Positions 24,058 through 49,099 of a DNA stretch of 64,000 nucleotides are shown here, in pieces (the first letter of the stretch is position 1; each line of letters begins with the position of its first letter). The position numbers and the translations under genes were made by a program. The notes under the pieces are model-generated. The model had not been told where the DNA came from, did not search any database, and saw only the letters and a program-made list of their open reading frames with translations. The DNA is from a bacterium (GTDB lineage Bacteria; Zixibacteria; MSB-5A5; GN15; FEB-12): positions 39,755 to 103,754 of the forward strand of contig JBDRNJ010000019.1 of the NCBI GenBank assembly GCA_043811375.1. The letters are read 5' to 3'.

Positions 24058-27000
24058 TCAGCAGGGAGGTGGTGGCGAGCCGCCCTGGAACAGGTAGGCT
24101 ACGAGATAAGTAAGGTCGCCGACATCGACACCACCATTGGCGTCAACATCACCCTCGTCAGTACATGGAGGTGGATTACCTCCCTGGAACAGGTACGCTA
24201 CCAACCGGGTCAGGTCACCGACATCCGTACTACCCGTGTTGTCAACGTCACCGCGCAGATCGCAGCATGATGGTTCGACTGGATTTCCATACCAGTATCG
24301 CATCTTGTCAACCTCGTCAAGGAAGTCACTCAGGTTACCGTTCTCTTGTGTTATGATCCCGTAGTAGAACTGGAATGTATCCGCCGCCGTCAATGTGGGC
24401 AGAGTGTCAAAGACCATAACAGCATACAAGTCTACCCCGGTACTGTCGGAGACAGCATAGCCGCTGTTGGCCATGTACTTGAAAAGCGAATCCTTCGGGA
24501 AACTGCCGGTCGGATAAACATCGCTGGGGTTATCCCGGGTATAGGCGCCGTGCGGCAGGCTGTCATAAAGGCTGCCGTTTAGATGTGCCCCAAGGAAGCT
24601 GATTCCCCCGTAGCGACTGTCGTTGAGTTGACATCCCAATCCGTCATACTCGGCGCCCTGCAGGTAGATCAGGCTATGGACACTGTCACAGCCGGAATGG
24701 TTGCGCGAGCCGGTATCCGAGGGAATGTCAAAATCGACTGCCTCACCAATACGTACACTGGTGGGCGGTACTTTCAACGTATCATTCAGATAGATCGTGA
24801 GGCACTCTACGATGAAACTGCAGGTGTCGGAATGTTGCGGAGCATACCAGGTCTTCTCCATGGCGATCAGTGAGTCATAGGTTACGAACCTGCCGGTCCG
24901 AAACAATTGGTAGCGGCCGGAATCGGCGGTGGCAGTGTCGCCCAGCGGGACCAGTCCACGAGAGTCATCACAGGTCACGTTGAACATGGAGTAGTTGACA
25001 ATGGTATCATTCCCACCGGTAAGGTAACCGATAACCGGGGAACCATCGTAGACATAGATAGTGGCGGTGGTGTCACAGTCGCCGGAAAAGTAGTAATCCA
25101 TGTTGTACTTGCCCAGACCTTGCTTGCCAAAACCGCCGGTATTGCTCACGATCAGCCTGGTGCAGGCAGTGCTTATCGTGTCCCAGACAGGTTCGATGAG
25201 AGTGTCGACCACAAGATGGCTGACTTCGAGCGTGTCGGGCGAGGTGGCGGCGTTGGACTGGAAAATCAAACGTCCGACCAGATGCACCGTGGTACCGGGA
25301 TTGTTGACCAGACCACCGGTATTGAGTGATACCTGACCGGTATCAGTGTGGCTCAGACCGTAGGAAACTGAGCCACTAAACCCGCTGTGGGCCAGCCATC
25401 CCGAAGGGCCGGTGTCCTCCTGAACTACTATATTGTAGTTCAGGGTCGCGTTTCCCGGGTTATTCACCACCACCGATCGATCACGCTGGCTGCCGTGCCC
25501 GGACCAGGAGGGATAAGTGATTTCTTCCGGTTCAAGAATAAGTCGCGGTTGAGCCAGTGGCGCCACGCAGGCGAGTCGAAACCAGCGTACCTCGGCCTGA
25601 GTCCACCACCCTTCCTGCTGCGTCACGGCACCGGCACTGGGGTCATAGATATATTGCACATCAAGGTAATGACTTTCCGGATCGCTGGAACCGGCCGGAA
25701 CGATGATCTCGATGGCACTGAAATCACCGTTATAATCACTGCCCAGACGAGTCATCGAGGGCCACTGCTCGTTGGCGCATGGACCGCCCAAGCCTCCAGT
25801 CGAATCACATCCGGGTGTGCGGGAATTGGTCAGGTTGCGGGCCTCATCCCAGGTTAGTCCCCCGTCGCTGGAAATTGTCAGGTACAGATCTCCATTGGCG
25901 GCACCATCGGGGAAACCGGGACTGCTGCCGGCAGCGCAGTCATTCTCGACACCGAAAGGGATGTCGTTGAACTGTACAAAGAGGACGTGCAGGTTGTTGT
26001 CGCACTCGGAGAGATTCATTTTCGAGGCCTGCAGTTGCCAGGTGCCTCCGTTACACTCAGTCTGGTCCCAGTCAAAACTGTGTACGGTGCTGATGTGATC
26101 ATCGGTTTCCGACCAGTGACACAATCGTCCCCTCAATGATCCCGGCAGACGGCCCTTGCCGGACTCGGAGGGCCAGATACGCTCATCCCAGACAACATGC
26201 AGATTGCCGTCGGAAGTCATCAGAGCCGAAGTGTTGGCAAAGGCCCGATAACTACTTTCCCCGGGGACATTTCCGGTAACATTGCGGCGCGGTTGCCAGG
26301 TAATGCCGTAATCAGACGAGATTTGATAATAGAGGTCATTATCCATCTGCGGATAATCTCGACACTCCCAGCCGGAGCAGGTGTCACAAGGGTCGCCGGC
26401 GCAAGGCAGGTTGGCTGTCCACACCAGCGCCACCCGGCCCGAGCCATCGGCAGCGATATCGTGCGCGGGGGTATACACCGTATCAACTATATAAGGCGGG
26501 TCATCCCAGGTGCCGCCGGCACCGGCGCCCACCTTCCGAAAATAGTAAAGAAAAGCCGGTTCAAAATTTCCAAGCCCGGATTCTACTGCCAGAATATGCA
26601 GAACAGTATCACCCGGACCCTCCTGGTAACGGAATTTCGGCCACATGACTTCCCGGCCAGGTGTACCGCCATAGCTGGAAATATGGCCCGGGACCTGCGC
26701 TTGAGTACTGAAATCGGCCAATCCCGGGCCGGCATCCCAGTAGAAATGACAGTCAATATCTCCATCGGCTCCCTCTCGGTTGTGGCCGCCAACCACAGCC
26801 CGACCGTCGCCGCAGACGTCGATACCCACAAAACCACCATTGTCGTCCAGAGACTGCAGACCGGTCTCTGTCAGAAAGTTGCCGGTGACGGCATTATAGC
26901 TGTAGTAGTGATACTCGCGGCCGAACCAGGCGGCGCCGGGCAGGTACATCCAACTGAAGTGGACAATCATAGTGTCCGGACTGCCGTGAAGCGACCAGGT

Positions 27001-27294
27001 AATCATGCGTCCCATAGACCCCAAATGCTGACCGTCAACCCACGTATGGCCGACTGTAGTGCCGGGCGATACTGCTGACAAGGAGACACCCAGGGGGTGC
27101 GGGCATGTACTTGAAACAGGTGATTCGACGCCATGATTGGCGGAACTGTACGGCCGCAGCAGGCCGGCGAAGGTATCCGCAGACCCGTTTCTCTCAGGAG
27201 AAGTTGTTGAGCCAGCCTTCAGTGGTGTCACCAACCATACGAACAGCGACAGAACACCGAGAATAACAGCAAACAAATACCTCCCGGACGTCAT
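24058..27294 (-). CDS. Secreted protein with Asp-box (BNR) motifs and C-terminal dockerin-like domain
   Basis: Signal peptide; SSDYGITW and SSDGGLTW Asp boxes; RGDVDNTGSTDVGDLTRLVAYLF ... GDVDANGGVDVGDLTYLVAYLF. Confidence 0.75.
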   Translation of the reverse strand: MTSGRYLFAVILGVLSLFVWLVTPLKAGSTTSPERNGSADTFAGLLRPYSSANHGVESPVSSTCPHPLGVSLSAVSPGTTVGHTWVDGQHLGSMGRMITWSLHGSPDTMIVHFSWMYLPGAAWFGREYHYYSYNAVTGNFLTETGLQSLDDNGGFVGIDVCGDGRAVVGGHNREGADGDIDCHFYWDAGPGLADFSTQAQVPGHISSYGGTPGREVMWPKFRYQEGPGDTVLHILAVESGLGNFEPAFLYYFRKVGAGAGGTWDDPPYIVDTVYTPAHDIAADGSGRVALVWTANLPCAGDPCDTCSGWECRDYPQMDNDLYYQISSDYGITWQPRRNVTGNVPGESSYRAFANTSALMTSDGNLHVVWDERIWPSESGKGRLPGSLRGRLCHWSETDDHISTVHSFDWDQTECNGGTWQLQASKMNLSECDNNLHVLFVQFNDIPFGVENDCAAGSSPGFPDGAANGDLYLTISSDGGLTWDEARNLTNSRTPGCDSTGGLGGPCANEQWPSMTRLGSDYNGDFSAIEIIVPAGSSDPESHYLDVQYIYDPSAGAVTQQEGWWTQAEVRWFRLACVAPLAQPRLILEPEEITYPSWSGHGSQRDRSVVVNNPGNATLNYNIVVQEDTGPSGWLAHSGFSGSVSYGLSHTDTGQVSLNTGGLVNNPGTTVHLVGRLIFQSNAATSPDTLEVSHLVVDTLIEPVWDTISTACTRLIVSNTGGFGKQGLGKYNMDYYFSGDCDTTATIYVYDGSPVIGYLTGGNDTIVNYSMFNVTCDDSRGLVPLGDTATADSGRYQLFRTGRFVTYDSLIAMEKTWYAPQHSDTCSFIVECLTIYLNDTLKVPPTSVRIGEAVDFDIPSDTGSRNHSGCDSVHSLIYLQGAEYDGLGCQLNDSRYGGISFLGAHLNGSLYDSLPHGAYTRDNPSDVYPTGSFPKDSLFKYMANSGYAVSDSTGVDLYAVMVFDTLPTLTAADTFQFYYGIITQENGNLSDFLDEVDKMRYWYGNPVEPSCCDLRGDVDNTGSTDVGDLTRLVAYLFQGGNPPPCTDEGDVDANGGVDVGDLTYLVAYLFQGGSPPPPC

Positions 27295-27498: not shown

Positions 27499-27528
27499 TT
27501 GACAAACAGATTTTCCGATGTATAATAT
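27499..27528 (+). promoter_or_regulatory. Sigma70-type promoter of the tRNA pair
   Basis: TTGACA-N18-TATAAT, 12 nt before tRNA-Gly. Confidence 0.75.
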
Positions 27529-27540
27529 GACAGGTAATAA

Positions 27541-27617
<77 letters not shown>

Positions 27618-27621
27618 GTTG

Positions 27622-27693
<72 letters not shown>

Positions 27694-28864: not shown

Positions 28865-28888
28865 AGCAGGCATTGACTGAGGTACAAC

Positions 28889-30053: not shown

Positions 30054-33000
30054 ATGGTCAGAAAAACAACGATTATCGTCTTTGGGCTGATTCTGCTGGT
30101 AGCCATGGCGCTGCTGGCCGGGACAGACAGACAGCCCACGGTGGAGGAGTTGCGGGCACTGCGAGTGCATTCAGCCGCAGAGGCGCCTGATATCGGCGAT
30201 TGGCAACCACCGACCAGCGCTGACCAGGTCTCCCCTGCCGCCATATTTATAGTTAACACAACGGCCGACGTCGGCGCGGGAAGCCTGAGAGATGCCATAA
30301 ATCAGGCTAATACCAATCTGGGGCATGATATTATCAACTTCAACATCGCCCCACCGGGCGGAGTTCACACCATTGCGCCGCTATCTCCATTGCCGTGGCT
30401 GCTGGACCCGTCAGGAGTGACCATTGATGGCACTACTCAGCCGGGTGCCGCCGTAGGAGCCTCGCCCCCATCGAGCCTGATTCTGAAAATCGAGCTTGAC
30501 GGCACCAATATCACTGCCGGCGGCGGCTGGGCCTTCGGCAACATGCGCGGGCTGGTGGCGCAATCGGACAACGACACCATTCAGGGGTTAATTGTAAACA
30601 ACTGGTGGGAGAGTGGCATCTGCATCCAGGGCGGTCCCATAAATCAATATGCCCGACACTGCTTAGTCCAGTGGAACATCGTCGGCATGGATTCAACCGG
30701 AACAGTGTGCAAGGGCAATGGTGTCGGCCAGCAAGCCCTCTGGGCGGGTATCTGCATCTGCAACTCACCTAAAGATGAAATGACACCGGCCTATGCCTTC
30801 ATGAACACAATCCAAGAAAACCTGTCATCGTGCAACTACACTGAGGGAATCACTGTTGTCGGTCCCGTACAGCCTGGTGATGTACACTCAAACCACGTTT
30901 TGCGCAACTACACCGGTACGGACATCAACGGAACGGCCGATCGGGGTAATGTCCACGAGGGGATCTGCCTGTGCGAGGGGACTCACGATAACCGAGTGCG
31001 CCGGAATCTTTCTTCCGGAAACGATTACGACGGTATCGGTCTTCAGGGCTACAACAACGAGCCGTTTGCTGCGCCCCCAATCCTAACCCACGCCAATCAA
31101 ATTGATTCCAATATCGTCGGTCTCGATGTTTACGGTAATCCACTGTCGAACACAATGGCCGGTATTACCATCGGCGAATACGGCCCAAGCCAGTGGGGTT
31201 GTGCTGATAACAATATAATTATGTACAACACTATAGCTGAAAACGGATGGGATGGTGTGGCCGTCTGGGAGGATCCGATCAACAGCTTCAATGCTGACCA
31301 TAATCAGATCACTCAGAACTCAATTTTCGACAATGATAGCCTGGGGATTGACCTGCAAAATGACTATGTGACCCCCAACGATGGCCCGGCCGACCCGGAC
31401 AGCCTCGCCAACCAGGAGATGAACTTCCCTGTCATAACGAGTGTTACCTACTCAGTCGGTAACACGACCATCAATGGTACGCTGAGTACTCCTTTACCGA
31501 ATACGGGCATCGTGGAAGTGTTTCAAGCCAGGCTTGACCTGAGTGGCTATGGAGAAGGAGAGAGGTATCTTGGTTCCACGGTACCTGATGCTGCAGGAAA
31601 CTGGAGCCTCACGGATGCAACGTTGGTACCGGGAGATTCCGTTACAGCTACCGCAACCGACTCATTCTTCAACACCTCGGAGTTCTGCGCCACCGTGCCG
31701 GTCGGAGGCGGCGGAACGGATCCTGATACCTGCGAGTATTATAAGCCGGCCTATGTCGATTATGCTCCGGCCGGAATGCCGGATTTCGACCAGAAGCAGT
31801 ACAACTGGTTCTGTCCCTCGACCACTGCCTGGTCACACTGTGGCCCGGTGGCGCTGGCCAACTGCTTCTGGTGGTTTGACTCCAAGTTTGAGACCAGCGG
31901 TACACCACCACCGGCCTACGCCGACAACTACCCGCTGGTGCAAAACTACGTGGCGGGAGCCGATGACCACGACAGCACCAACGTACAGCCGTTTGTCGAT
32001 TCACTGGCCTTGTACTGTCAAACCAATGCCGGCACCAGCTGCGGTACCAGTGTCTTCGATCTGGCTAAGGGCGCTCAGGACTGGCTCGACAGCGTCGGGC
32101 TGGGTAGCAAGTACAATATCCAGGTGGTACCGATGGACATGGCCTATGGCTTCGAGTACCTCCGCAAGCAGGTGCTTGATTGTCAAGACGTCATCCTGCT
32201 GATCGGGTTCTGGCAGGAGCAGACACCAGGCTACTGTGAGCGGCGCGGCGGGCACTTCATGACCATAGCGGGAGTCTGCACCGATCCGTCCGACTCCGCC
32301 CTGTGCTTCTCCGATCCATACTACGATCTTAACGAAGGTGATCCCCCGGGACCACCGGTTCATAACGCCGGCGTTCATAACGATGCGCAGTTTGTCTCCG
32401 GTCCTCACGGGACGATGCATCACGACAAGTACTATGTTGATTCTTCGACCTGCCAGGCGACGGGTCAGCCGTTCTTCCTGGAGTTGCGAAATTACGCCTC
32501 CAATCCAGGCTGGGTAGCCAATTTCGACGGCCAGAACCGTTTTGATACGCTGATCGACCCGACCCCACCGAATGCCAATCCAGTGCATGCGTTGCTCGAG
32601 TTCGCCGTGGTGATCTGCCCGGTGGTAGAACCGAAACTTGGCAAGGTGAAACACAACACCGACGGCTACGAGCCCGGTGACGGCAGCCCGATTGGTACTA
32701 ATTGGCATGAACTGTGGCCGAATTACTGCGAAAACTGGGTATGCAGCAGTTGGGTGGACAACGGCGATGGTATCCTCAGCTACTGCGATACCATCGACTT
32801 CGTGCACATTCCCACCGGCCGCAAGATATGGGAGCATGTCGAGGTAGTCACGCCGACCATTACGGTTACGGACGTATCCGACCCGACAAACACCACTTAT
32901 CTCGATCTCATCGACCCCAATCCTATGTGCACGCTGCTTACCAGTCCCGTCGGCACTTACTGGCATGAGGTCCATCCGAACTACTGTACGGTCTGGCAGA

Positions 33001-35423
33001 TTACAAACTGGACTGATAATGGCAACGGCTATCTCGACTATTGCGACTGGATAGATATCGAAACTTCCGGCGGTGGCGCCACCGCGTACGTTCATGTCGA
33101 GGCGTTCGAGACCGATATCATCACCACGCCGCTGCCGATACCGGACGCCGATGAATACGACCACAACCTCGACGGCTACCACCCTTCGATGGGCGATCCC
33201 TCAGGCACCCAGTGGCATGAACTGTGGCCCAACTATTGCGAGATGTGGGATTTGACCGAGTGGCGTGACAACGGCGATGGTGTTCTCAGTTACTGCGATA
33301 CCATTAAGTTCGAATATCCCGGCGATCCTGACTCGGTTATCTGGAAGCATATCGAGGAGGTCACACCGACGATCAAGGTCACCAATGAACTGGATACACT
33401 GTACCTTGATTTCATGTGTGGCAACCCAATGGTTGAGGATATTGATGATCCTATCTATACTTTCTGGCACGAGGTATATCCAAACTTCTGCGTGCGCCGG
33501 ATGTGTATCGGCTGGACCGACAACGGTAGTGGGATTCTTGACTCCTGTGACTACATTCAGTTGGAGCTTCTCGATGGACCGGATTCAGGCACCGTCATGG
33601 AATATCATGTGGAGGCTTGGGAAACCGACATCGTCACCACTATCCTCGATATCGAGGAACCGCCGGTGCCGACACCCGGCAAGGTCAAGCATAACCTTGA
33701 CGGCTACAAACCAACTGACGGCAGTCCAATCGGGTCTGATTGGCACGAGTTGTGGCCCAATTACTGCGTCAACTGGGCCTGCAGCAGTTGGCACGACAAC
33801 GGTGACGGCATACTGAGCTACTGCGATACTATCGACTTCGTGGACATGGCTACCGGCCGCAAGATCTGGGAGCACGTCGAACTGGTGACACCTACCATAG
33901 AGGTTACCGACACTATTGTTTCGACCAACATCATGTTCCTCGATCAACTCGATCCCAACCCGCTGTGCACCACGCTGACAGACCCCGTCGGCACCTGGTG
34001 GCACGAGGTGTACCCCGGCTACTGCACGGTCTGGCGGCTCACCGCCTGGACCGACAACGGTAACGGCTATCTTGACTACTGCGATTTTATCGACTTTGAA
34101 CTGCCCGACGGTTCCGGATACTGGGCGGCTCACGTGGAGGCGTTCGAGACCGATATCGTAACCACCCCGTTGCCGATTCCGGATGCCGACGAGTACGACC
34201 ATAACCTTGACGGCTACCGACCGGCCGATGGTGATCCCACCGGAACCCGGTGGCATGAGCTCTGGCCCACCTTCTGCCGCATGTGGAATCTGGTTGAATG
34301 GCGGGACAATGGCGATGGTTATCTCAGCTTCTGCGATACGATCAAGTTCGCCAACCCGTCAGTTCATGATACCGTGATCTGGAAGCACGTCGAGGATGTG
34401 ATGCCGACCATCAAGCTCTGGGACGGTTCTGATACATCATATTTTGACCATATGTGCGGCAATACGATGGTGGTAGACATCACCAATCCGATCAACACCT
34501 ACTGGCACGAGATCGTCCCGAACTTCTGTCAGCGGTCAATCTGTGTCGGTTGGGCAGACAACGGCAACGGCTTCCTCGACTCCTGCGACTACATTGACCT
34601 GATGAAGATTGATGGAGCCGATTCCGGTACTGTGAGAAACTACCACGTCGAGGCCTTTGAAACCGATATCGTCACGACCATCATCCCGGATCCAACGCCG
34701 CCGTCTGACAGCCTGATAATGCTTGACACGGTCTACAACATCAATCCAGCCGGAGAGTTGCCAGCCGGACCGCTGCTGAAGTTCATGATGCGGTGGAAAT
34801 ACACTGTCGGCAGCGCAGTCACGGCCTTCGCGAATGGCTTCCGGGTCTACTCGCCTGACGGCGCCACCTGGCAGCCGATTGTCATCGATACCGTCAGCCG
34901 CGGTTGGCCAAGCCGGTTCGATCTAAACTTCGGCTTTACATACAACAGCGCCAATGGCTCCGGTGCCGACACTGCCGGTGTCGCCGGAGTAAGCATGCTC
35001 GGCAGCGGTATCCCGTCACCGTTTGACTCGCTTGTCTGGTGGATCGAGACCAGGGTGTCGATTGTCGATACCGGCAAAACCCTGTGTATCGACTCGTCAT
35101 TCTTCCGGACCAGCGGCGTGTGGACATGGGCAACCTCGCCCACGCCTGGCGGCTTTCCACCCGCCTGGACCGGACCGCACTGCTACAAGATTGTTGCCTG
35201 CTGCAATCACGACGGACTCCGCGGCGATGCCGACTACAGCATGACGTTGGATGTCGGGGACCTGACCTACCTGGTCGCTTACCTCTTCCAGAGCGGACCC
35301 ACTCCACCCTGTTATGAGGAAGGTGATGTGGACGGCTCCGGGTTCATTGATGTCGGTGACCTTACTTACCTGGTGGCTTACTTGTTCCAGGGAGGTTCGA
35401 CACCAGCGGCCTGTCCTCCGTAG
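30054..35423 (+). CDS. 1789-aa secreted multidomain protein: beta-helix, papain/C39-like protease domain, 8 Trp/Cys repeats, cohesin-like domain, dockerin
   Basis: AGGAGG RBS; VNTTADVGAGSLRDAI then Asn/Gly-rich beta-helix repeats; DQ...CGPVALAN...GHFMTIAG...SDP; 8x WHExxPxxC...WxDNGxGxLxxCD; terminal duplicated DVGDLTYLVAYLFQ. Confidence 0.8.
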   Translation: MVRKTTIIVFGLILLVAMALLAGTDRQPTVEELRALRVHSAAEAPDIGDWQPPTSADQVSPAAIFIVNTTADVGAGSLRDAINQANTNLGHDIINFNIAPPGGVHTIAPLSPLPWLLDPSGVTIDGTTQPGAAVGASPPSSLILKIELDGTNITAGGGWAFGNMRGLVAQSDNDTIQGLIVNNWWESGICIQGGPINQYARHCLVQWNIVGMDSTGTVCKGNGVGQQALWAGICICNSPKDEMTPAYAFMNTIQENLSSCNYTEGITVVGPVQPGDVHSNHVLRNYTGTDINGTADRGNVHEGICLCEGTHDNRVRRNLSSGNDYDGIGLQGYNNEPFAAPPILTHANQIDSNIVGLDVYGNPLSNTMAGITIGEYGPSQWGCADNNIIMYNTIAENGWDGVAVWEDPINSFNADHNQITQNSIFDNDSLGIDLQNDYVTPNDGPADPDSLANQEMNFPVITSVTYSVGNTTINGTLSTPLPNTGIVEVFQARLDLSGYGEGERYLGSTVPDAAGNWSLTDATLVPGDSVTATATDSFFNTSEFCATVPVGGGGTDPDTCEYYKPAYVDYAPAGMPDFDQKQYNWFCPSTTAWSHCGPVALANCFWWFDSKFETSGTPPPAYADNYPLVQNYVAGADDHDSTNVQPFVDSLALYCQTNAGTSCGTSVFDLAKGAQDWLDSVGLGSKYNIQVVPMDMAYGFEYLRKQVLDCQDVILLIGFWQEQTPGYCERRGGHFMTIAGVCTDPSDSALCFSDPYYDLNEGDPPGPPVHNAGVHNDAQFVSGPHGTMHHDKYYVDSSTCQATGQPFFLELRNYASNPGWVANFDGQNRFDTLIDPTPPNANPVHALLEFAVVICPVVEPKLGKVKHNTDGYEPGDGSPIGTNWHELWPNYCENWVCSSWVDNGDGILSYCDTIDFVHIPTGRKIWEHVEVVTPTITVTDVSDPTNTTYLDLIDPNPMCTLLTSPVGTYWHEVHPNYCTVWQITNWTDNGNGYLDYCDWIDIETSGGGATAYVHVEAFETDIITTPLPIPDADEYDHNLDGYHPSMGDPSGTQWHELWPNYCEMWDLTEWRDNGDGVLSYCDTIKFEYPGDPDSVIWKHIEEVTPTIKVTNELDTLYLDFMCGNPMVEDIDDPIYTFWHEVYPNFCVRRMCIGWTDNGSGILDSCDYIQLELLDGPDSGTVMEYHVEAWETDIVTTILDIEEPPVPTPGKVKHNLDGYKPTDGSPIGSDWHELWPNYCVNWACSSWHDNGDGILSYCDTIDFVDMATGRKIWEHVELVTPTIEVTDTIVSTNIMFLDQLDPNPLCTTLTDPVGTWWHEVYPGYCTVWRLTAWTDNGNGYLDYCDFIDFELPDGSGYWAAHVEAFETDIVTTPLPIPDADEYDHNLDGYRPADGDPTGTRWHELWPTFCRMWNLVEWRDNGDGYLSFCDTIKFANPSVHDTVIWKHVEDVMPTIKLWDGSDTSYFDHMCGNTMVVDITNPINTYWHEIVPNFCQRSICVGWADNGNGFLDSCDYIDLMKIDGADSGTVRNYHVEAFETDIVTTIIPDPTPPSDSLIMLDTVYNINPAGELPAGPLLKFMMRWKYTVGSAVTAFANGFRVYSPDGATWQPIVIDTVSRGWPSRFDLNFGFTYNSANGSGADTAGVAGVSMLGSGIPSPFDSLVWWIETRVSIVDTGKTLCIDSSFFRTSGVWTWATSPTPGGFPPAWTGPHCYKIVACCNHDGLRGDADYSMTLDVGDLTYLVAYLFQSGPTPPCYEEGDVDGSGFIDVGDLTYLVAYLFQGGSTPAACPP
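32640..34700 (+). repeat. Intragenic hierarchical tandem duplication (two 1038-bp units, each with four roughly 85-aa repeats)
   Basis: GGCAAGGTGAAACACAAC at 32640 recurs as GGCAAGGTCAAGCATAAC at 33678; repeat order A-B-A'-B' occurs twice. Confidence 0.9.
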
Positions 35424-38451: not shown

Positions 38452-41322
38452 TCACAGGCAATTAAGTTCCGGTATGGAGCCGAACAGGTAAGCCACCAGG
38501 CTCGTCAGGTCGCCGACATCAATGGCACCACTGCCGTCAACATCAGCCGCAGCCGGCACCGGTGGTGGCGGACCACCCTGGAACAGATAGGCCACCAGAA
38601 ATGTCAAATCTCCCACGTCTACGCTGCTGTTGCCGTCAATATCACCGCAGATGTAAGCTTCACCAACATGCAGATCATACAATTGCTCGGCAGTGGCGCC
38701 GACCGAATCTGCCACCTGCGCCACAAAACTGATAGTGCCGGTATCGGTGGGTATGCCCGACAATAAACCGTCGGTGGCAAGAGTCAATCCGGTCCCGGCC
38801 AGGTTACCATCGCGATCGGACCAACTACGCATGCCGGTGCCACCGTCGGCCTGCAACTGCTCGGAGTAGGCCACGCCCTGGTCGGCATCGGGAAGGTCGG
38901 TCGTTGTTATCTGTAGTTGCGGATTGACCTGGAAAGTAAGCTCGGTTTCGTCGTTGCGGGCAATTTCATCGGTTGCCACTGCCGTGAAACTGACCGTCCC
39001 GGCTACCGTCGTACCGGCCACCAGGCCTGTTGCCGACAGTGTCAACCCGGTTCCGACAAGGTCATTGTATTTGTCGGTCCAGGTAATCTGACCGTAGCCA
39101 CCTATATGCTCCAGTTGTTGAGCGTACACCAGACCGGCCGTCCAGTCCGGCAACGCCTCGGTCGTGATCTCCACATCGGGACCGCATGAAAAGAGAGTGA
39201 TTTTCACGGCATCGATAGCCGCTTCGACAGTTGATTCTCCACCCAGATCGGAAGCACCAAAGCATAGTCTGACCTGAGTTGATGGGGCTATAACGTCATT
39301 CAGCCAGAATCGATGCAAAAACCAACCTCCGGAAGCCTGATAGACGGGACCGACGGTCTCCATCAGCAACCAACTCATTCCGTTATTATTAGAGACATAC
39401 ACCCTAAAAATATCGTTAAAGGGATTGCCACCGGTACTGTTACAGTACCAGCGGGCATATTCGATTAGTGCCTGACCGGATGACAGATCCCACGGCGGTG
39501 ATCTCAGAATCGTGGTGCCTTCATCGACATCGATAGCGGCCCAGGCATCTTCCTCCGGTCCGGTGGAATAACACATGCCCGAGCCATCAAAATCAACTGC
39601 TGCTTGTCCCGAGTAGCCGTAGCCGCCGGCATCCCGACGCCCCCACATACCGCGGGTAGCATCACCCATAACAGCCCAGCCCTGGTAGGTTTCAAAATTG
39701 TCTTCGAAAATCACCGCCATTTCAGTACCGGCCGCTGCAAAAATGGGTGCAGCTGAATCCGGTTTGTAGAATACCGAGCCGCCGATCTCTTTGGCGCTCA
39801 CATAGTACTCCAACCGACTCTCACAGGTAAATGCCGGAATATCAGCACTGAACAGATTGCCGGAAACATTGCTCATCGGAATTGACGTATAGGCACTGCC
39901 ATCGATAGCGTAGTGCAAGCGGCAACTGTCGGCCAGTAACACTGCCCCGGCGTACATATCTATTTCAACTTCGACTGTTTCTGGCGATCCCGGCAACAGC
40001 AGTTGCGGAGCACCGTACGGGTAGTCGATCAGCAACAGCGGATCAGGAGTATAGTCGGCGTCGGTGACATACACCATAGCCAGGCTCGCTCTGGATATAC
40101 GGGCCATGTAGTTGAAGTCACAATAGACGGTGCTGTCATGCGCCGTATGTATACCCCAGGGGTAGATATCCTCCCCCAAACTGACCGTAGGGAACCCATA
40201 TTGATCAAAAGCCTTACCGTCCCATACCGCCCCTGTATTTTGAAGTCCGGCAGTTATACCCAGGCTCAATGAATCGGCCAGGTCATTCCATAGCTGACCA
40301 AAAGGGTCACCGGCATCCTGGTAAATCCAGGCCAGATCAGTGTTCTCGTAATACGAGATGCAGTCGAGATTCAGCACCAAAACGATACTGTCGCCACGCT
40401 GCCGAGCCTGATGAGCATAGTGCCAGGCGCCCCACAAACCGGGTTCCTCGGCGTCAAACAGGACGAACACGAATGTCAACCGGGTGTCGATGTTCTTGAG
40501 GATTCGCGCCATTTCCAGAACGGCACCGGTTCCGGAGCCGTTGTCATCGGCGCCCGGTGAGTTGTAGGGGAAGGCGTCACGGTGCCCGCCGACCACAATC
40601 TGGTGCAGCGGATACATCGAGCCCACTTTGGTCGCGATCACATTGTTGCCGAGAGAATGTACCGGCGTCGGCTCCCAGAAGTTGATGACATTAAAAGTAT
40701 CGGTATAGACTGAATCGTATCCGAAATCGTTAAGTTTACCGATGAGCCAATCACGCGAAGCATAATTGGAGTCGGTTCCTACCAGCCGGCCGTTGAAAGC
40801 TTCCAGTCGTTCAACGTAGGACCGACAGGAATCCTCACTCAGCAAACCGACCAGCGAATCCAGATCAACCATGGATTTCGTTGTCCTGAGATCAATCTGC
40901 CGTGGTTCGCGGTAAGTGACCGGTAAATTGGTGACCATGATCGGTATCAGGCCGACCGGCCAGCCCTTGGTCTCTATCTCCGTCGGGTCAATCCGGTATA
41001 ATTGCAACAAGCCATTTTCGTAGAGTAACGGGTACTGGTCCCCGTATGACCTCTCGTGGTGAATGCACATGGCCACTTCCGGGCGGGTCACACCTGATGC
41101 TATCGGTCGCGATATCAATCCTGAGGCGTTTAATCTTGATGATCCCGCATTGTCAACGATGACCAGATAGCTACCATCGACTTTGAGCAGAACATCAACA
41201 CCCGCACGCGACAACATTTTCGCATCCGAATGGCTGCCGATGTCGACCTTGTACAGGTCACCTGCTACAGCAGTAGAGCTCAGCACCGTGACCAACAGTA
41301 ACAACAGTAATTTTGGTGTCAT
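38452..41322 (-). CDS. Second secreted M28 metallopeptidase, same architecture
   Basis: GGHRD, PGADDNGSG, FDAEEPGL, LNLDCIS, IHTAHD; two Ig-like repeats; dockerin. Confidence 0.88.
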   Translation of the reverse strand: MTPKLLLLLLVTVLSSTAVAGDLYKVDIGSHSDAKMLSRAGVDVLLKVDGSYLVIVDNAGSSRLNASGLISRPIASGVTRPEVAMCIHHERSYGDQYPLLYENGLLQLYRIDPTEIETKGWPVGLIPIMVTNLPVTYREPRQIDLRTTKSMVDLDSLVGLLSEDSCRSYVERLEAFNGRLVGTDSNYASRDWLIGKLNDFGYDSVYTDTFNVINFWEPTPVHSLGNNVIATKVGSMYPLHQIVVGGHRDAFPYNSPGADDNGSGTGAVLEMARILKNIDTRLTFVFVLFDAEEPGLWGAWHYAHQARQRGDSIVLVLNLDCISYYENTDLAWIYQDAGDPFGQLWNDLADSLSLGITAGLQNTGAVWDGKAFDQYGFPTVSLGEDIYPWGIHTAHDSTVYCDFNYMARISRASLAMVYVTDADYTPDPLLLIDYPYGAPQLLLPGSPETVEVEIDMYAGAVLLADSCRLHYAIDGSAYTSIPMSNVSGNLFSADIPAFTCESRLEYYVSAKEIGGSVFYKPDSAAPIFAAAGTEMAVIFEDNFETYQGWAVMGDATRGMWGRRDAGGYGYSGQAAVDFDGSGMCYSTGPEEDAWAAIDVDEGTTILRSPPWDLSSGQALIEYARWYCNSTGGNPFNDIFRVYVSNNNGMSWLLMETVGPVYQASGGWFLHRFWLNDVIAPSTQVRLCFGASDLGGESTVEAAIDAVKITLFSCGPDVEITTEALPDWTAGLVYAQQLEHIGGYGQITWTDKYNDLVGTGLTLSATGLVAGTTVAGTVSFTAVATDEIARNDETELTFQVNPQLQITTTDLPDADQGVAYSEQLQADGGTGMRSWSDRDGNLAGTGLTLATDGLLSGIPTDTGTISFVAQVADSVGATAEQLYDLHVGEAYICGDIDGNSSVDVGDLTFLVAYLFQGGPPPPVPAAADVDGSGAIDVGDLTSLVAYLFGSIPELNCL

Positions 41323-41380: not shown

Positions 41381-44300
41381 TCAGATACAAACCGGTGCTG
41401 CCCCTCCCTGGAATAAGTATCCAACCAGCACGGTCACATCCGCCACGTTCAGATCACCGGAACTGTCTACGTCGGCTGCCGCAATCACCGGCGGCGGCGG
41501 ACCACCCTGGAACAGATAGGCCACCAGATATGTCAAATCTCCCACGTCTACGGCACCACTGTTGTCAACATCACCGCAAATCCAGGCTGGTTCTACTCTC
41601 AGATCAAACTGCTTTTCATCGGTACTGCCGGCAATGTCCTGAACCGACGCCGTGAAAACGATTGTCCCGGTGTCAATGGGCGTTCCCGAGAGCAGGCCGT
41701 CAGCAGTCAGAGTCAAACCGGTCCCGGCCAGGTCACCGTTCTTGTCGCTCCAGGATTTGGTACCAGTACCCGCCGCCGACTGAAGTTGTTCGGAATACGG
41801 CTCACCTTCGGTAGCAGTCGGCAATGAATCGGTGACAATCGTGACAGCGTCATTAATCGTAAACGATAGCGGCTGGTCCTCACCGGCTCCGGCTTCATCG
41901 CTGACGTGCGCCGTGAAACTTATCATACCCACAGAGTTGGGAGTGCCTGATAACAGGCCGGTCGACGAGAGTGCCAGACCGGTACCGATCAAATCAGTAT
42001 TTTTGTCGGACCAGGTTTTGAGGCCGGTACCGCCGGTTGCCTGCAATTGTTGATCGTATGCCTGACCGACAGTCCAGTCGGGAATAGAATCAGTAGTTAT
42101 ATCCAGCGCCGGATTGATGGTAAAACTGAGTTCCTTTTCGTCGGTCTGCAGAGCATCGTCCACTACCTTGGCCGTGAACGTAATCAGACCCAGTGAGTTC
42201 GGTGTTCCCGACAGCAGACCCGAAGACGAGAGACCGAGGCCGGTTCCGACCAGATCACCATACTTGTCGCTAAAGGTCAACCCTCCGGTGCCGCCAGAAG
42301 CCTCAAGTTGCTGGGAATAGGCGACATCGACTGTCCAGTCGGGTAGAGAAACAGTGGTGATCTGGGGCACGGAGGAACTGCACGTGAAGATGGTTACTGA
42401 GACGGCGTCAACAGCAGCCTCGACAACCGAACCATCGCTCAAGTCGGAAGCATCAAAGCGCAGTCTCATCTGGCTGGTGGGTATAACAAAACCACCGACC
42501 CAGAAAGTATGCTCAAACCAGCCACCGGAGGCCTGCTCGGTGGGACCGACTGTTTCCACCAGTGTCCAGGAGCCGCCGTTGTTGTTGGATATATAGACCT
42601 CAAAGACGTCGTTGTAAGGATCGGCCCCAAAGTTGTTGGAATACCAGCGGGCATAATTCACCTGGGCGTCTCCGGACGACAGATCGAAAGTGGGTGAGGT
42701 CAGGATAGTGGTCCCGCCATCTACGTCTGAGTTGTCGTCAACATTGTCGGTAAGATAGCAACGGCCGGAACCGTCATAATCAGTGGGAGGATCACCCCGA
42801 TCTCCGCCACCGACCGGCACTCCCCGGTTCCATTGACCGTCGGAAGCATCTCCGGAGACCGTCCAGCCCTTATCGGTTTCAAAATCATCGGCAAAGACAG
42901 ACGTCACACCGGTGGCCACCACTGCCGAAAAAGGATTAGTAGTGTCCGGGTCATAATAGACGCCGCTGCCCACTTCGGAAGCGCTGACAAAGAAATCGTA
43001 TCTGCTGAGGCATCCGGCCGGAGGCAGGACTGCCTGGTAATGGTCAGGAGATGTCTCGGTCATAGATTCCGTCACCCAGGAGCCGCCGTCCAGCGAGTAA
43101 TGCAGTTCGCCGCTGCCCGACAGGGGTGTTCCGCCCAGGGCACCGCTGACCACCACTTCAAACATCGTTGATTCTGCGGGGACCAGCATAGTCGGCACCC
43201 CACCGGGATATGAAAATGTAACTGATGGACCGGGCGTTGTCACCCCTACCGCGTTCCAGGCCAGAGCCACCTGGGTCGCCCAGGCACCGGTGGTATCAAG
43301 ATCATTGGCCGCCGAGATTGTACCCAGGGCCGCCTGGTGATAATCGGTGCTGGAAGTCCAGTAGTACATATTGGACCGGTAGGCTACCAGAATAGCATTG
43401 TCGTATCCGATCCCGGTCACCGTCACGCCGTGGTGACTGCCGCCGTCGGACAGCAGAAAATACCACTTGTTACCCACCCCGCTGTTGGTGTGGACGCCGC
43501 AGTAGTCGTTGAGCCAGGAGGGACTGCAACCGACCACGTCAATCCAGTAAGGGTCTGAGGTACCGTAGAAGTCGGGATCACCAAACTGGTGCGGGTCCGA
43601 CATGTCGCGAAACCCGTCGCCGCTGATTTGACCGTTTTCTCCCATCAGCCAGTCGGGAGTGTCCATGCTGTCGTGGGCGAACTCAAAGGCCGCCCCCATC
43701 ATATCCGAAAACGATTCGTTAAGAGCACCCGGTTCCTTCTCGTAGACCAGGTTGGAGCCGTAGTCGGTGACGGCGTGGCCCCACTCATGGGCTATCACGT
43801 CCGGACAACCGGCCAGCGACCGCCAACCGGAAGACCAGCTCCAGACAACGATCCGGCTGCCGTTCCAGTAGGCGTTGTTATCCCCCTCGGCGCTGTAATT
43901 GACCGAGGTGTTCATCGAAGCGCCGCTGCCGTTGTAGCTGTTGCGGCCGAAAAAGTGCAGAAGCCAGTCATACATCAGGGCCGTATAGACGTGACCGTCG
44001 ACCGCCGGTGACTGAACATTGGGGTCATTCCAGACGTTATCGACGTCGGTGGCCACGCTGCCGGGCAGAGAGGAGCCGGCGATATTCGTCTGCAAGTAGC
44101 TCCCGTCGGGCATCTGGCCGTCATGGCCGTGGGGGTCGTTGTTGAGCCGACGGGTGTAATCGATCATACGATAAGTGGAACTGTTGTAGTCGGTATCAAT
44201 ATGCTTGCGAGCGGTGCCCATAACACCGGTACCGGTGCCGATGTCGTTGGCATCCATTATCCGGTTGGCCTTGTAAACGACCTCACCGGTCGCAGCATCC

Positions 44301-44920
44301 ATCAGGTACTCCCAGCGACCCATCGGTGTGTCCGAGTACAGAAAAAGCCGCCAGCATAGGTAGTATTGCTCATTCCAGGGGAAAACCACCAACTGAGGTT
44401 CATCAGGGCGGGCCGGGCCAAAGAAGCTCTGCAGGTCGGTCTCGGCCAGGGCTGTAGCGGTTTCGGCCGTAACGGCGGGAGTGGTCTCCAGGGCTATTTC
44501 CGGCAGGTACCTGCCACCAACCGTGTGCAGGACACCCTCGGCACTGAAGTGTGCGATTAGCTCACTGCCGATAACCGGCAATCCCCGGAAATGCTGCTGA
44601 AACCGGACATGGCGCATCCCCAGCTCATCGGAGTCAAGGCGGACCAAAAGCAATTCCTCGGCAGGATCAGCCATTCGGTAAGCGGCTTTGTTGTCGGCAA
44701 AGAACGACAGAGCGGCAGCAACCTCCTCACCGGCAGCAACCGGTTGGGATAGATTGCCCTCGACATATTCGGGTATGCCTCGTTCGTCAGCCTGATAAGT
44801 ACTGATAACGGGGCTCAGAATCAGGGTGTTGAAGCGACCGAAGCCGTCTTCGTCGACTTCGGCTGAAGCCGTGGTAAACACGGCAATGGCAATGAATAGC
44901 GACGGTAGCAAGCGTGTCAT
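41381..44920 (-). CDS. Secreted M4 (thermolysin-like) metallopeptidase with FTP/PepSY propeptide, three Ig-like repeats and dockerin
   Basis: AGGAG RBS before ATG 44920; DELGMRHVRFQQ (FTP), DAATGEV (PepSY), NNAYWNG, HEWGH, GALNESFSD, GVHTNSG. Confidence 0.93.
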   Translation of the reverse strand: MTRLLPSLFIAIAVFTTASAEVDEDGFGRFNTLILSPVISTYQADERGIPEYVEGNLSQPVAAGEEVAAALSFFADNKAAYRMADPAEELLLVRLDSDELGMRHVRFQQHFRGLPVIGSELIAHFSAEGVLHTVGGRYLPEIALETTPAVTAETATALAETDLQSFFGPARPDEPQLVVFPWNEQYYLCWRLFLYSDTPMGRWEYLMDAATGEVVYKANRIMDANDIGTGTGVMGTARKHIDTDYNSSTYRMIDYTRRLNNDPHGHDGQMPDGSYLQTNIAGSSLPGSVATDVDNVWNDPNVQSPAVDGHVYTALMYDWLLHFFGRNSYNGSGASMNTSVNYSAEGDNNAYWNGSRIVVWSWSSGWRSLAGCPDVIAHEWGHAVTDYGSNLVYEKEPGALNESFSDMMGAAFEFAHDSMDTPDWLMGENGQISGDGFRDMSDPHQFGDPDFYGTSDPYWIDVVGCSPSWLNDYCGVHTNSGVGNKWYFLLSDGGSHHGVTVTGIGYDNAILVAYRSNMYYWTSSTDYHQAALGTISAANDLDTTGAWATQVALAWNAVGVTTPGPSVTFSYPGGVPTMLVPAESTMFEVVVSGALGGTPLSGSGELHYSLDGGSWVTESMTETSPDHYQAVLPPAGCLSRYDFFVSASEVGSGVYYDPDTTNPFSAVVATGVTSVFADDFETDKGWTVSGDASDGQWNRGVPVGGGDRGDPPTDYDGSGRCYLTDNVDDNSDVDGGTTILTSPTFDLSSGDAQVNYARWYSNNFGADPYNDVFEVYISNNNGGSWTLVETVGPTEQASGGWFEHTFWVGGFVIPTSQMRLRFDASDLSDGSVVEAAVDAVSVTIFTCSSSVPQITTVSLPDWTVDVAYSQQLEASGGTGGLTFSDKYGDLVGTGLGLSSSGLLSGTPNSLGLITFTAKVVDDALQTDEKELSFTINPALDITTDSIPDWTVGQAYDQQLQATGGTGLKTWSDKNTDLIGTGLALSSTGLLSGTPNSVGMISFTAHVSDEAGAGEDQPLSFTINDAVTIVTDSLPTATEGEPYSEQLQSAAGTGTKSWSDKNGDLAGTGLTLTADGLLSGTPIDTGTIVFTASVQDIAGSTDEKQFDLRVEPAWICGDVDNSGAVDVGDLTYLVAYLFQGGPPPPVIAAADVDSSGDLNVADVTVLVGYLFQGGAAPVCI

Positions 44921-45155
44921 TTTTGCTCCTGGAATGTATGTCTTCAGCCAAAAAATCCGGCTGAAAATGTATGTAAGATGCGACTCGAGGAGAGTACGCT
45001 GTAACGCTATATATGATAACAAATTATTTGAATTTGTCAACTGGTTTGGCGACTGCCGTCGGGCGCAGAAAATGTGGGTTTCCGGCGCGACATGCTGAGG
45101 TGAGAAACCACCAGCCGGCAGACCTATAAACCAGCCGATGGCTGCGCTTCGGGCC

Positions 45156-45193
45156 AAAAAGAAACCGGGGACCGGCTGATGCCGGTCCCCGGT
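45156..45193 (-). terminator. Strong rho-independent terminator
   Basis: Perfect 13-bp stem ACCGGGGACCGGC-TGAT-GCCGGTCCCCGGT, U-rich tail on the minus strand. Confidence 0.9.
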
Positions 45194-48200: not shown

Positions 48201-49099
48201 TCCAGGTAAAACGTGGCGGCATCCATCTCCTTGGAGAAAGTCACCGTCAGCAGCGAGTTGTAGTCGAAAGGCACGTGCTCTTCAAAATTCTTGCTGAGGA
48301 TGTGGGGCGGATCGTCGCAGTTCAGCGACGCATAGATATTGGGCTGTGTCGCCGTACCGTTGTGAACCAGCTTTACACTCCTTGTTTCGGACTGATAGGA
48401 ACTGTCACCCATGGTAAACGGCTGCGTGGTCACCGTCACACACTCGTAGCTGGGGTGGGACCAAGGCACGTTGGTGAAGCTGTAGACACCGGTAACATCG
48501 GTCGTGTCGATGTAGACAGCCGGATCAATGTCCCAGCAATACTCAAGTTCAACCACGACACCGCCAACCGGAGAGACCGGGTCGGGCGGGTCCTCGGTCG
48601 CTATCGGCTCGTCGGTGTCCTTGGGAGGAGCCGGCAACGCCGTGTAAACCCGACCGATCAGGTTGGCGTTCAGCGGATAAAGAAACATGTTATGCTCTTC
48701 ACTCCAGTCGATATTGCCGGAGGGGATGTCGGGATTCAAACCTCGCAGATACTCCAGAGTTGGGATGGACGCAGTCGCCCGGCCGATGGCATGGCCATTG
48801 ACATTGAACCGCAGTACGTATTCACCGGGACTGAGTTCACCGGTAGTAACATAGATGCCGGTGGAGTCAGTATAGACAGTGTGAGTCTGGCCACCACTGA
48901 CCCACCGCACTAACACGGAGTCCATACCGGAATTGGTGAAGGCATCCTTCACCGACCCATGAATGCTGCCGATCACACGATCCGGAGACTGCGGATCGGC
49001 CGCGTTGGTGATGGTGTCTCCTTCACAACCGATGAAGTAGACTCCCAGAATGCCGCTCAGAAGTACGGCGAGCAGCAACAGATACTTTGAGTTTCGCAT
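45221..49099 (-). CDS. Large acidic Thr/Asp-rich lipoprotein with serial Ig-like/Fn3-like domains (candidate surface-layer protein)
   Basis: GAGGAG RBS, FIGC lipobox-like, VTFSKEMD (SbsA Ig-like), C-terminal repeats P-N-G/C-G-E...I-x-W...YSTxGG. Confidence 0.75.
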   Translation of the reverse strand: MRNSKYLLLLAVLLSGILGVYFIGCEGDTITNAADPQSPDRVIGSIHGSVKDAFTNSGMDSVLVRWVSGGQTHTVYTDSTGIYVTTGELSPGEYVLRFNVNGHAIGRATASIPTLEYLRGLNPDIPSGNIDWSEEHNMFLYPLNANLIGRVYTALPAPPKDTDEPIATEDPPDPVSPVGGVVVELEYCWDIDPAVYIDTTDVTGVYSFTNVPWSHPSYECVTVTTQPFTMGDSSYQSETRSVKLVHNGTATQPNIYASLNCDDPPHILSKNFEEHVPFDYNSLLTVTFSKEMDAATFYLELVPDITTPADTPWTVTQTWTSNNQVLTLTPIMTLMTDTDYELDMWGQSQDGCDLTNPAYDFTIMDGIRLISTNLERAPGLFDSVAIDSVIRLNFDMVPVIGTVYGWLTLYDVTDTIYNPGLDSFAVDFTPTVAGNSVIITPSDSLERNHIYRLKYKVLSNVQGDYVMGNFTFYTEQFDVPPGVVPAFAVNSSAMGGNWPIDWDVTQVKFTWNTVALAAGYGYKIYAKDNYRNSDFIEVVDVASQDHLQYQSGTVDLPSQFDYYVNDGIQTPFTGGTQVTFAIRAYNNAGMGPFSTGITLGDVVAPVFTIDQTYSADNTAGTSVQTVLITMGAQTEYVATSSNPVFTFIEAGGDESWAPVPGDVVWTWNNAYRKDTTGYITLEAGECGAGDSLRVTISDNSGNPYTYTFRLMPYINITNPVSTTTDFEAPSHNVTWTIAQASGATPINWVDYMVTFDGGVTMVDSVGNFGSGTSGNTVLADIYDTLYSPTARVGIMDHTVGNIWWSDVFTHNGIEVTGPDSTYDTLSTIYDLEGTDSTFVPITWNQVGVDIVKIWYREGGGAWQEYDSLAGSAGAYNFWAPDLGYDWDCVVKVAAIDDGEPYDTLDYEFTVVHDYITITAPTSGTEIEGGANYSVVWTYVGDSTQDIIVEYSDDDEATWTTLATTKNDGAWTWPVSSNMPAHPDDGWLRFRDSNDSNTVATTGPFSVSGLTIMEPNGGEEWLVGRSDTIRWDTFNTAGVGDVDLYYSTDGWATENLIAAGEDNDGKYAWSVDAPPSTTVQVRIDGVDHNVSDASNANFTVCGLTLIKPNCGENVAQGAGFTIMWGNVGTLIDSIDMQYDTGGTGWVDIASDTNDGSYAWTVANAPSTKVKVRVKKKGVDTGADVSDCNFTISGIKVTAPNGGETADTGSVYTITWERIGTVSTVAIDYSTNGGSTWSTIPGAGNINPADQSYSWNVLGSTFDSPPYANCKIKIYEVSGYISDESNGVFTIDEP

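Follow-up and report, generated by a model that had tools for sequence, protein, structure and literature searches.

Five neighbouring genes whose secreted products all end in a duplicated calcium-loop/helix motif raise the question of whether these proteins are plugged into cohesins after the manner of a cellulosome and, if so, whether the locus or the whole genome is the unit of assembly. The genes lie between positions 24058 and 49099 of the window, the 64,000-nucleotide stretch of Zixibacteria-like DNA analysed here, and together with a lipoprotein gene they had been taken in the original prediction for a protein-degrading surface complex. All five open reading frames are real. Their C-termini are dockerins, as had been surmised: the module consists of two F-hand calcium loops (D-x-D/N-x-D/N-G, with a further D at position 12), each followed by a helix, D18 and D51 are invariant, and a profile built from 83 dockerins of the genome retrieves 22 sequences of solved structures from the PDB at E≤0.01, all of them dockerin-bearing (best 9.5e-9). 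The gathering cut-off of Pfam Dockerin_1 (PF00404), which is 22.9, is exceeded in three of the five cases, namely by the whole proteins encoded at 38452- (28.0) and 41381- (26.3) and by the excised module of 24058- (27.6); the modules of 30054+ (18.0) and 35539- (16.5) score below it. Val-Gly, expected in nearly every loop, occupies nine of the ten, the exception being the second loop of the M4 peptidase with Val-Ala.

The heads of the five proteins had been assigned to M4, M28 (twice), papain-like and Asp-box types, and the corresponding motifs were found in all of them, in the papain-like case without a Pfam match. The secreted Asp-box protein of 1078 aa (24058..27294, minus strand) contains two Asp-boxes, which likely belong to a beta-propeller whose BNR_2 score remains below the Pfam cut-off, and a C-terminal dockerin (24061..24267, minus strand) with Val-Gly in both loops; four full or near-full paralogues exist elsewhere in the same genome. 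The secreted M4 (thermolysin-type) peptidase (41381..44920, minus strand) has a propeptide, HEWGH and NESFSD motifs, He_PIG domains and a dockerin (41384-41590). On the same strand follow two secreted M28 peptidases, one with He_PIG domains (38452..41322, dockerin 38455-38661) and one with Ig-like domains (35539..38394, dockerin 35542-35748), both with Zn-site motifs; in all three peptidases the Pfam domain is over the cut-off, and they share a C-terminal cassette (49-61% identity). The most likely start of the M4 gene is ATG 44920 (1179 aa) and not TTG 45157, because the former is accompanied by the ribosome-binding site GGAG and a signal peptide, whereas the latter overlaps a terminator-like hairpin (13 bp with T tail; 45164..45193, minus strand). 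As judged from the gene arrangement, M4 likely heads an operon of three peptidase genes, in which an endopeptidase and two exopeptidases would form one co-transcribed protein-digesting set within a wider cargo. The three genes are spaced 57-58 bases apart behind a single promoter-like site (45013..45040, minus strand; TTGACA-16-TATCAT with extended TG, 11 of 12 positions, a consensus match only).

This spacing, together with the fact that four of the five heads are peptidases or peptidase-like, would suit a locus-encoded complex with the neighbouring lipoprotein as its anchor and the 1789-aa protein encoded at 30054+ as its chain link. Such a self-contained unit is nonetheless highly improbable. 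The same dockerin code recurs in about 100 other proteins and leaves no room for private specificity, and the cluster as such is not retained: of 15 loci with an M4 orthologue, one has an M28 gene next to it. The lipoprotein gene (45221-49099), situated upstream of the peptidase genes and cut off from them by the terminator-like hairpin, encodes neither cohesin nor dockerin nor a type IX secretion (T9SS) tail according to five local profiles, and it occurs in four of 30 relatives, in none of them beside M4; its proposed membership was consequently abandoned. A T9SS type A C-terminal sorting domain is likewise absent from all five dockerin proteins of the window. A density of five dockerin genes per 25 kb is ordinary in this organism, as contigs C71 and C4 contain nine and six, respectively, and three further contigs also reach five. 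The unit is therefore the genome (92 contigs), in which 119 proteins, the five of the window included, carry a near-uniform calcium-loop module; of 128 such modules, 106 are C-terminal.

What these dockerins might dock into is indicated by the secreted 1789-aa protein (30054..35423, plus strand), which comprises a beta-helix-like head, a C39/papain-like domain, eight W-x-D-N-G-x-G repeats, a cohesin and a dockerin. For the domain at 34710..35201, AlphaFold predicts with a pLDDT of 95 a nine-stranded jelly-roll beta-sandwich that can be superposed over its full length on solved cohesins, and the top 16 structural matches are all cohesins. In the predicted structure the domain thus has the cohesin fold, in agreement with the suggestion that this protein unites cohesin and dockerin. 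Its family, here termed cohA, has conserved cysteines (126 and 158) and is represented by no Pfam model. None of 21 cohA members matches the Pfam cohesin profile PF00963 even at E≤1, which speaks against membership in PF00963 but not against the cohesin fold; the profile search that had been proposed as a check was hence positive for Dockerin_1 with three modules and negative for Cohesin with this domain. Furthermore, cohA yields no significant PDB sequence match, and its profile link to a second family, cohB, is weak (hhalign probability 21.5%). The dockerin (35205..35420, plus strand; Val-Gly in both loops, 18.0 bits and thus below the cut-off) follows the cohesin directly. The C39/papain-like domain (31725..32627, plus strand) has conserved Gln, Cys, His and Asp in the proper order (Q580, C597, H734, D754) and matches neither Pfam nor PDB sequences; ESM Atlas scores are 0.96 to clusters with 13-26% Peptidase_C39_2 carriers and 0.95 to IdeS/Mac, and with its CGP motif the domain recurs in ten other cohA-bearing proteins. 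It may be active as a cysteine peptidase, and the protein as a whole is likely an enzyme-bearing adaptor.

The cohesin of the window is one of 62 cohesin-type domains in 54 proteins of the genome and not the anchor of the system. These domains fall into three families, cohA and two further ones (cohB, cohC) that can be linked by sequence to cohesins of known structure or in Pfam. The genome-wide count thus gave 119 dockerin proteins against 62 cohesin-type domains, and two of the three outcomes named beforehand as refuting the idea, lack of a cohesin fold and lack of any other cohesin, did not come about. Cohesin and dockerin are combined in 35 proteins, some of them in the order dockerin-cohesin-dockerin and some reduced to a minimal cohesin-dockerin pair of 254-276 aa. 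In 14 proteins one or more cohesins precede a T9SS tail, and four of these are little more than signal peptide, cohesin and tail, with cohA, cohB and cohC forms on contigs C74, C68 and C67. Two proteins encoded elsewhere, on C10 and C88, combine a lipobox with cohA, acidic residues following the cysteine; in Bacteroidota, acidic motifs at this place are described as directing surface exposure in the available part of the report (PMC6222051). Judging from their architecture, these 14 tailed proteins and two lipoproteins are candidate anchors. SprA, PorU and PorV-family genes are present over the cut-off, the latter with at least seven copies. The cohA family comprises 903 representatives at 50% identity, and of 40 short homologues consisting of cohA only, 23 show a lipobox-like pattern. 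Proteins of this 92-contig genome contain up to three cohesins, some of those of relatives five to six; at least three full cohA domains occur in 28 of 325 cohA proteins, and the scaffoldin-like relatives P0001-P0004 possess five cohA, cohB, a dockerin and a T9SS tail.

We therefore favour, with a probability of about 0.68, a reading in which dockerins plug Ca-dependently into surface-held cohesins and so cover the cell, much as in a cellulosome, with peptidases and adhesin-like proteins. The five genes of the window are ordinary members of the genome-wide set; cohesins of the presumptive receptor family would be held on the cell surface by T9SS tails or lipid anchors, the cargo would snap into them in the presence of calcium, and the 35 proteins with both modules would form chains or branches, the 1789-aa protein being one enzyme-bearing example.

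As to the nature of the cargo, 101 of the 119 dockerin proteins, all but 18 short ORFs, were scanned (96 at E≤1e-5 and five at E≤0.01). None contains a Pfam glycoside hydrolase catalytic family, in line with the expected lack of cellulases. The presumed focus on peptide degradation was too narrow: Pfam peptidases make up 21 of the 101, and in the remaining four fifths or so there are propellers, beta-helices, TSP3 or Ig repeats, or else no recognizable domain. This composition, the 35 two-module proteins with their minimal forms and the share of dockerin genes in the genome (7% of its bases) could also be accommodated by a mainly structural or adhesive matrix, a lattice of cohesin-dockerin adaptors with enzymes as minor passengers. 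We consider this improbable, given that the peptidases represent nine families with motifs intact where checked and that the M4-dockerin fusion has been kept across families of the order; it differs from the coat of peptidases and adhesins favoured here only in emphasis.

Dockerins were found in all 31 genomes (19-150 per genome in the 30 relatives searched), cohB in 31 and cohA in 29. Each of five genomes examined has a dockerin signature of its own, to which even the M4 orthologue conforms; in place of Val-Gly, the codes Ile-Ser, Met-Gly and Ala-Leu are seen in other genomes. In all five, the M4 dockerin scores 0.60-0.83 against the pool of its own genome and 0.33-0.47 against other M4 orthologues (loop-end and helix columns). 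In the genome studied here, identical residues share their codon with a frequency of 0.435, where 0.379 is expected from codon usage; synonymous codons are near saturation and the uniformity is thus kept at the protein level, which points to selection for a single receptor particular to the genome. Diversity is far greater among the cohesins than among the dockerins; cohesin positions 39, 94, 96, 135 and 139 are genome-biased, and cohesin-dockerin covariation does not rise above shuffles.

A homogeneous code without covariation would also fit a single receptor that is not a cohesin, such as one of the PorV-family barrels, which would read the dockerin, instead of a T9SS tail, as a C-terminal signal for export or sorting, while cohesin folds would mostly serve as structural spacers or stabilisers of the adjacent dockerin, much as the X-module does for type II dockerins. 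Dockerin and T9SS tail indeed occupy the same terminal position and coincide in only eight of the 119 proteins, and the gap between cohA and a terminal dockerin is at most 15 residues in 69 of the 132 cohA proteins that have one. A role as spacers, however, hardly accounts for stand-alone cohesin lipoproteins, dockerin-free cohesin-tail proteins and tandem proteins with five to six cohesins. Some dockerins are internal or doubled, and a T9SS tail replaces the dockerin in none of 14 complete M4 orthologues, so that we regard this explanation as unlikely. The lineage-wide tag originally offered as an alternative describes the situation correctly and does not conflict with cohesin binding. Only slightly less doubtful than the non-cohesin receptor is a reading of the dockerin as a private second export-and-display code: some 110 tail-less enzymes and adhesins would leave via SprA on small cohesin-tail carriers and stay docked, each lineage rewriting its plug secretome-wide so that neighbours cannot capture the enzymes. 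On this view the phylum would contain dozens of cohesin-dockerin pairs orthogonal to one another, along with hundreds of Pfam-invisible cohesins.

If binding holds, a cellulosome assembly kit would be the main secretome organiser of an uncultured Gram-negative lineage, aimed at protein and adhesion and not at cellulose. Since cohA has no Pfam model, the dockerins seem to lack partners in a standard annotation and the system goes unnoticed. With the genome-specific plug, the evolution of cohesin-dockerin specificity could be tested directly, and such genomes are likely to yield new orthogonal pairs for designer enzyme scaffolds, possibly stabilised by disulfides.

In the literature searched, no cohesin-dockerin complex has been published for Zixibacteria; the idea has already been put forward in silico for the neighbouring Cloacimonadota and Planctomycetes, and the locus studied here is only a sample of the system. 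As in those complexes, dockerin peptidases and cohesin proteins with a putative surface anchor occur here in one genome. According to the available part of the report, the cellulosome-like complex of Ca. Stygibacter, also proposed for an uncultured Gram-negative lineage, has dockerins on S8 and C25 peptidases, no cellulases and, as its anchor, a cohesin protein whose C-terminal domain is of the T9SS type (Williams et al., 2021; PMC8542988). Its single scaffoldin measures 3755 aa and bears CBMs, and its dockerin enzymes are few, GH18 and GH57 among them, whereas the cohesins described here are spread over 54 proteins and three families, accompany 119 dockerin proteins lacking Pfam glycoside hydrolases among the 101 scanned, and come with putative lipoprotein anchors and a genome-specific code seen across genomes. 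The hypothetical 'planctosome' of freshwater Nemodlikiaceae resembles our system in its peptide-degrading combination of endo- and exopeptidases with a cohesin-dockerin adaptor, but has few components, peptidases of families M12B and M14 and a lamin-tail protein anchor; T9SS or lipoprotein cohesins are not described in the available part of that publication (Andrei et al., 2019; PMC6461901).

With the cellulosomes, species-specific dockerin residues (reported in PMC12484212, as far as available) and large dockerin numbers with some peptidases are shared, the accessible text on R. flavefaciens FD-1 giving 222 dockerins and 16 peptidase modules (PMC2930009). The two folds are the same as in clostridial and ruminococcal cellulosomes (type I cohesins 4ums, 5nrk, 4uyp), the dockerin is symmetric and fit for dual binding, and adaptor and anchoring architectures recur. 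In contrast to cellulosomes, neither cellulases nor CBM3 were found in the cargo and no large primary scaffoldin in this 92-contig genome, the dockerins end in a Cys, the cohesins are 7-18% identical to solved ones, and T9SS or lipid anchors in a diderm envelope would take the place of SLH domains or sortase. The non-cellulosomal cohesins of Archaeoglobus fulgidus (2xdh) and Clostridium perfringens (2vo8, 2w1n) belong to genomes with few such modules, whereas about 7% of the DNA in the present genome is tagged by them.

The window spans 39755-103754 of contig C19 in a 3.56 Mb genome (92 contigs, 95% complete), and all five open reading frames predicted to end in a duplicated calcium-loop/helix module are present in it. 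Three of the five reach the Pfam Dockerin_1 cut-off but two miss it; a profile of 83 dockerins from the genome matched 22 PDB sequences at E<=0.01, every one of them dockerin-bearing. Val-Gly, expected nearly always, occupies nine of the ten loops. The M4 head (41381, reverse strand) and both M28 heads (35539 and 38452, reverse strand) pass Pfam with intact metal-ligand motifs. The papain-like head of the 1789-aa protein (30054, forward strand) has catalytic-type residues (Gln580, Cys597, His734, Asp754) and a likeness to C39_2/IdeS clusters in the ESM Atlas (score 0.95-0.96), but Pfam and PDB sequence searches gave no match; including its CGP motif, it recurs in ten further proteins of cohA, a cohesin-fold family that lacks a Pfam model and includes the window domain 34710-35201. 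Residues 861-1547 of the same protein (32634-34690, forward strand) hold eight repeats, each roughly 84-92 aa long and built on a W-x-D-N-G-x-G core, paired into four 170-aa double units that are 51-74% identical to each other. These repeats match no Pfam family, are found in at least eight other cohA-bearing proteins and possibly represent a new calcium-binding repeat.

A locus-sized system is improbable; the dockerin unit is the whole genome. A profile of the five window dockerins matches 111 open reading frames, and 119 after iteration with two divergent seeds added; dockerin genes make up 7% of the genome. The module is C-terminal in 106 of 128 cases, and among these 106, Val-Gly fills both loops in 65 and one loop or more in 90. 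Pfam peptidase domains, counted by eye, occur in 21 of the 101 dockerin reading frames scanned for cargo (the other 18, all shorter than 230 aa, were left out): seven S8, three C25 (one double), three C1, two C10, two M1, two M28 and single cases of M4, M14 and trypsin, with the C39-like protein as an extra. Catalytic families of glycoside hydrolases are absent from the 101. Peptidases are the main recognizable enzymes, as the proposed term 'peptidosome' implies, but the term is too narrow, because the remaining cargo consists of beta-propellers (SBBP, FG-GAP, BNR, LVIVD), beta-helices, TSP3 and Ig repeats or has no match. Small secreted dockerin proteins of 117-193 aa form a family that combines a low-complexity linker with a W-x-V-I-x-S-G-G motif (C36:66647, C39:19720, C57:2453, C74:453 and, assigned by eye, C71:14172, C72:93426, C88:2677); one member adjoins a two-cohesin lipoprotein on C88, and a relative at C27:4133 has the motif and a type IX secretion (T9SS) tail and lacks the dockerin.

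Loop positions 10-11 set dockerin specificity. Dockerins are present in all 31 genomes compared (19 to at least 150 each, median 76). For each of four relatives the best 30 of 54-114 dockerin loci were compared, a choice biased towards the consensus of the genome under study, and this bias acts against the result. The loop-end and helix signature reads DVGDLTYLVAYLFQ in the genome under study and DISDLVYLVTYMFQ, TMGDLTVLIDHLFI, NVGDAVYLINYVFK and NALDITYLINYLYK in relatives G009, G012, G020 and G024, respectively. Over these columns, dockerin identity in the five genomes is 0.65-0.91 within a genome versus 0.24-0.57 between genomes. In all five, the dockerin of the M4 orthologue resembles those of its own genome (0.60-0.83) more than those of the other M4 orthologues (0.33-0.47). 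Identical dockerin residues share the same codon in 43.5% of cases compared with 37.9% expected from codon usage in the genome under study, and the uniformity therefore does not stem from recent copying. The simplest reading of these sequences is that selection makes dockerins fit one genome-specific receptor surface; a parallel is the species specificity of clostridial cohesin-dockerin pairs (PMC12484212).

Two further cohesin families were seeded from Pfam Cohesin matches. The profile of cohB (22 domains) matches solved cohesins (best E 3.3e-4), and members of cohC (17 domains) pass the Pfam cut-off; cohB and cohC are akin (hhalign 91%), and the link between cohA and cohB is weak (21.5%). 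In agreement with the proposed cohesin-dockerin pairing, the genome holds 62 cohesin-type domains in 54 proteins, against 119 dockerin reading frames. No protein has more than three cohesins, 35 of the 54 also bear a dockerin, and in 14 a T9SS tail follows the cohesin. Taxon-named homologues of the window cohesin-like domain are all labelled Zixibacteria, FCB group or merely 'bacterium', and the source bacterium is accordingly termed Zixibacteria-like. Two overlapping reading frames at C39:40222-42772 (forward strand), cohA-BACON and cohA-dockerin, may be one frameshifted gene.

The window cohesin is a possible but uncertain receptor, because cohA identity is just 33-44% within and 24-34% between genomes (62 domains, five genomes), because cohA shows no covariation with the dockerin of the same chain, and because cohA was detected in 29 of the 31 genomes, the other two having 53 and 76 dockerins; cohB occurs in all 31. 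For the same reasons the anchor is to be looked for among tail-bearing and lipoprotein cohesins. Two proteins consist of a lipobox, a linker and one or two cohA copies, with CSKDNE and CKDKDD at the lipobox cysteine. In Bacteroidota, motifs of the K-(D/E)2 type lead to surface exposure (PMC6222051), and by carry-over to Zixibacteria these lipoproteins might likewise be surface-exposed. Among 40 short homologues with cohA alone, 23 show a lipobox-like pattern; many of these are closely related to each other. Three or more cohA domains are found in 28 of 325 cohA proteins, and scaffoldin-like chains from relatives (P0001-P0004) join five cohA and one cohB to a dockerin and a tail.

A second, divergent dockerin class with Ile-Ala in loop 1 sits within cohesin-dockerin-X-T9SS-tail cassettes (C11:2868-8839, C73:559-3153, C5:34526-36946, C84:107171-109786, C6:51270-52907), in which X is possibly another cohesin-like domain; the cassettes likely form an anchoring or adaptor tier that has a specificity of its own. 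One protein (C71:18648-20816, reverse strand) combines three tandem divergent dockerins with a Peptidase_S74 chaperone domain. Genes above their cut-offs include those for SprA and the sortase PorU, together with seven or more of the PorV family. The T9SS-tail profile gathers 54 reading frames, part of which (e.g. FlgD) are probably not true tails. A T9SS cluster at C21:52832-69013 (L123) contains PorU, an M6-like tail-bearing protein, a 955-aa PorV-family protein interrupted by a long insert with a LysM-like match, and a second protein weakly matching SprA.

We give the following mechanism as a whole a probability of roughly two in three. Signal peptides picked out by eye, together with the loops, suggest that dockerin proteins are exported via Sec and loaded with calcium. 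Cohesin proteins with tails would, by established T9SS biology and the genes present, exit through SprA, be processed by PorU and become fixed at the surface. Dockerin cargo would dock on these or on lipoprotein cohesins, possibly in either orientation given the symmetry of the two dockerin halves, and cohesin-plus-dockerin proteins such as the 1789-aa one could extend the chains. Near the cell, M4 would cut proteins and the M28 pair trim peptides, as their family activities suggest. The 111 tail-less dockerin proteins may leave by piggy-back on SprA or through a type II-like cluster, or may reside in the periplasm; the type II-like cluster on C27 scores below cut-offs.

The system likely works like the cellulosome assembly system; it is not a cellulosome, since no cellulase was found among the 101 dockerin proteins scanned. 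Dockerin peptidases with a CTD-anchored scaffoldin have been proposed for Ca. Stygibacter (Williams et al., 2021; PMC8542988), resembling the dockerin peptidases and cohesin-tail proteins found here. Other papers describe a proposed planctosome (Andrei et al., 2019; PMC6461901), 222 dockerins and 16 peptidase modules in R. flavefaciens FD-1 (PMC2930009) and non-cellulolytic species with scaffoldins (PMC11557425). Full-text literature, a corpus mostly excluding subscription papers, returned nothing for Zixibacteria with dockerin or cohesin, and only an unrelated co-mention for spelling variants of Zixibacteria with cellulosome; the publications found there on cohesin, dockerin and type IX secretion do not name Zixibacteria in titles or abstract openings. 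New here are the quantified genome-specific dockerin code, the structural demonstration of a cohesin-fold family that Pfam misses, and lipoprotein cohesins as candidate anchors.

Gene content at the window locus is not conserved as a unit. Half of the 30 relatives have an M4 homologue; of the 15 loci retrieved, 13 have a dockerin end by profile, one has a visible but sub-threshold dockerin and one runs off its contig. A T9SS tail is seen in none of them, and a single locus has an M28 gene next in line. For the M4 gene the most likely start is 44920, which has a ribosome-binding site and a signal peptide; the TTG further upstream shares bases with a 13-bp terminator-like hairpin (45193-45164, reverse strand). 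A promoter-like site (11/12 matches; 45040-45013, reverse strand) follows the hairpin; both were judged by position and quality, as site totals in the scans were no higher than in shuffles. The lipoprotein at 45221-49099 (reverse strand), originally counted as a component, is a neighbour of the system: it occurs in four of 30 relatives, never within an M4 locus, and profile searches found neither cohesin, dockerin nor T9SS tail in it. It has 1292 aa made of Ig-like repeats, the final domain of which shares 44% identity with that at the C terminus of a cohA-dockerin-cohB protein (C33:8916-10595). Other genes of the window include an unannotated lipoprotein-like reading frame of 466 aa (22614-24014, forward strand), a DUF6599 and TAT-signal DUF362 pair (27914-29788, forward strand) preceded at 27499 by a perfect sigma-70 consensus, and the metallopeptidase pair TldD/PmbA (13587-16512, reverse strand).
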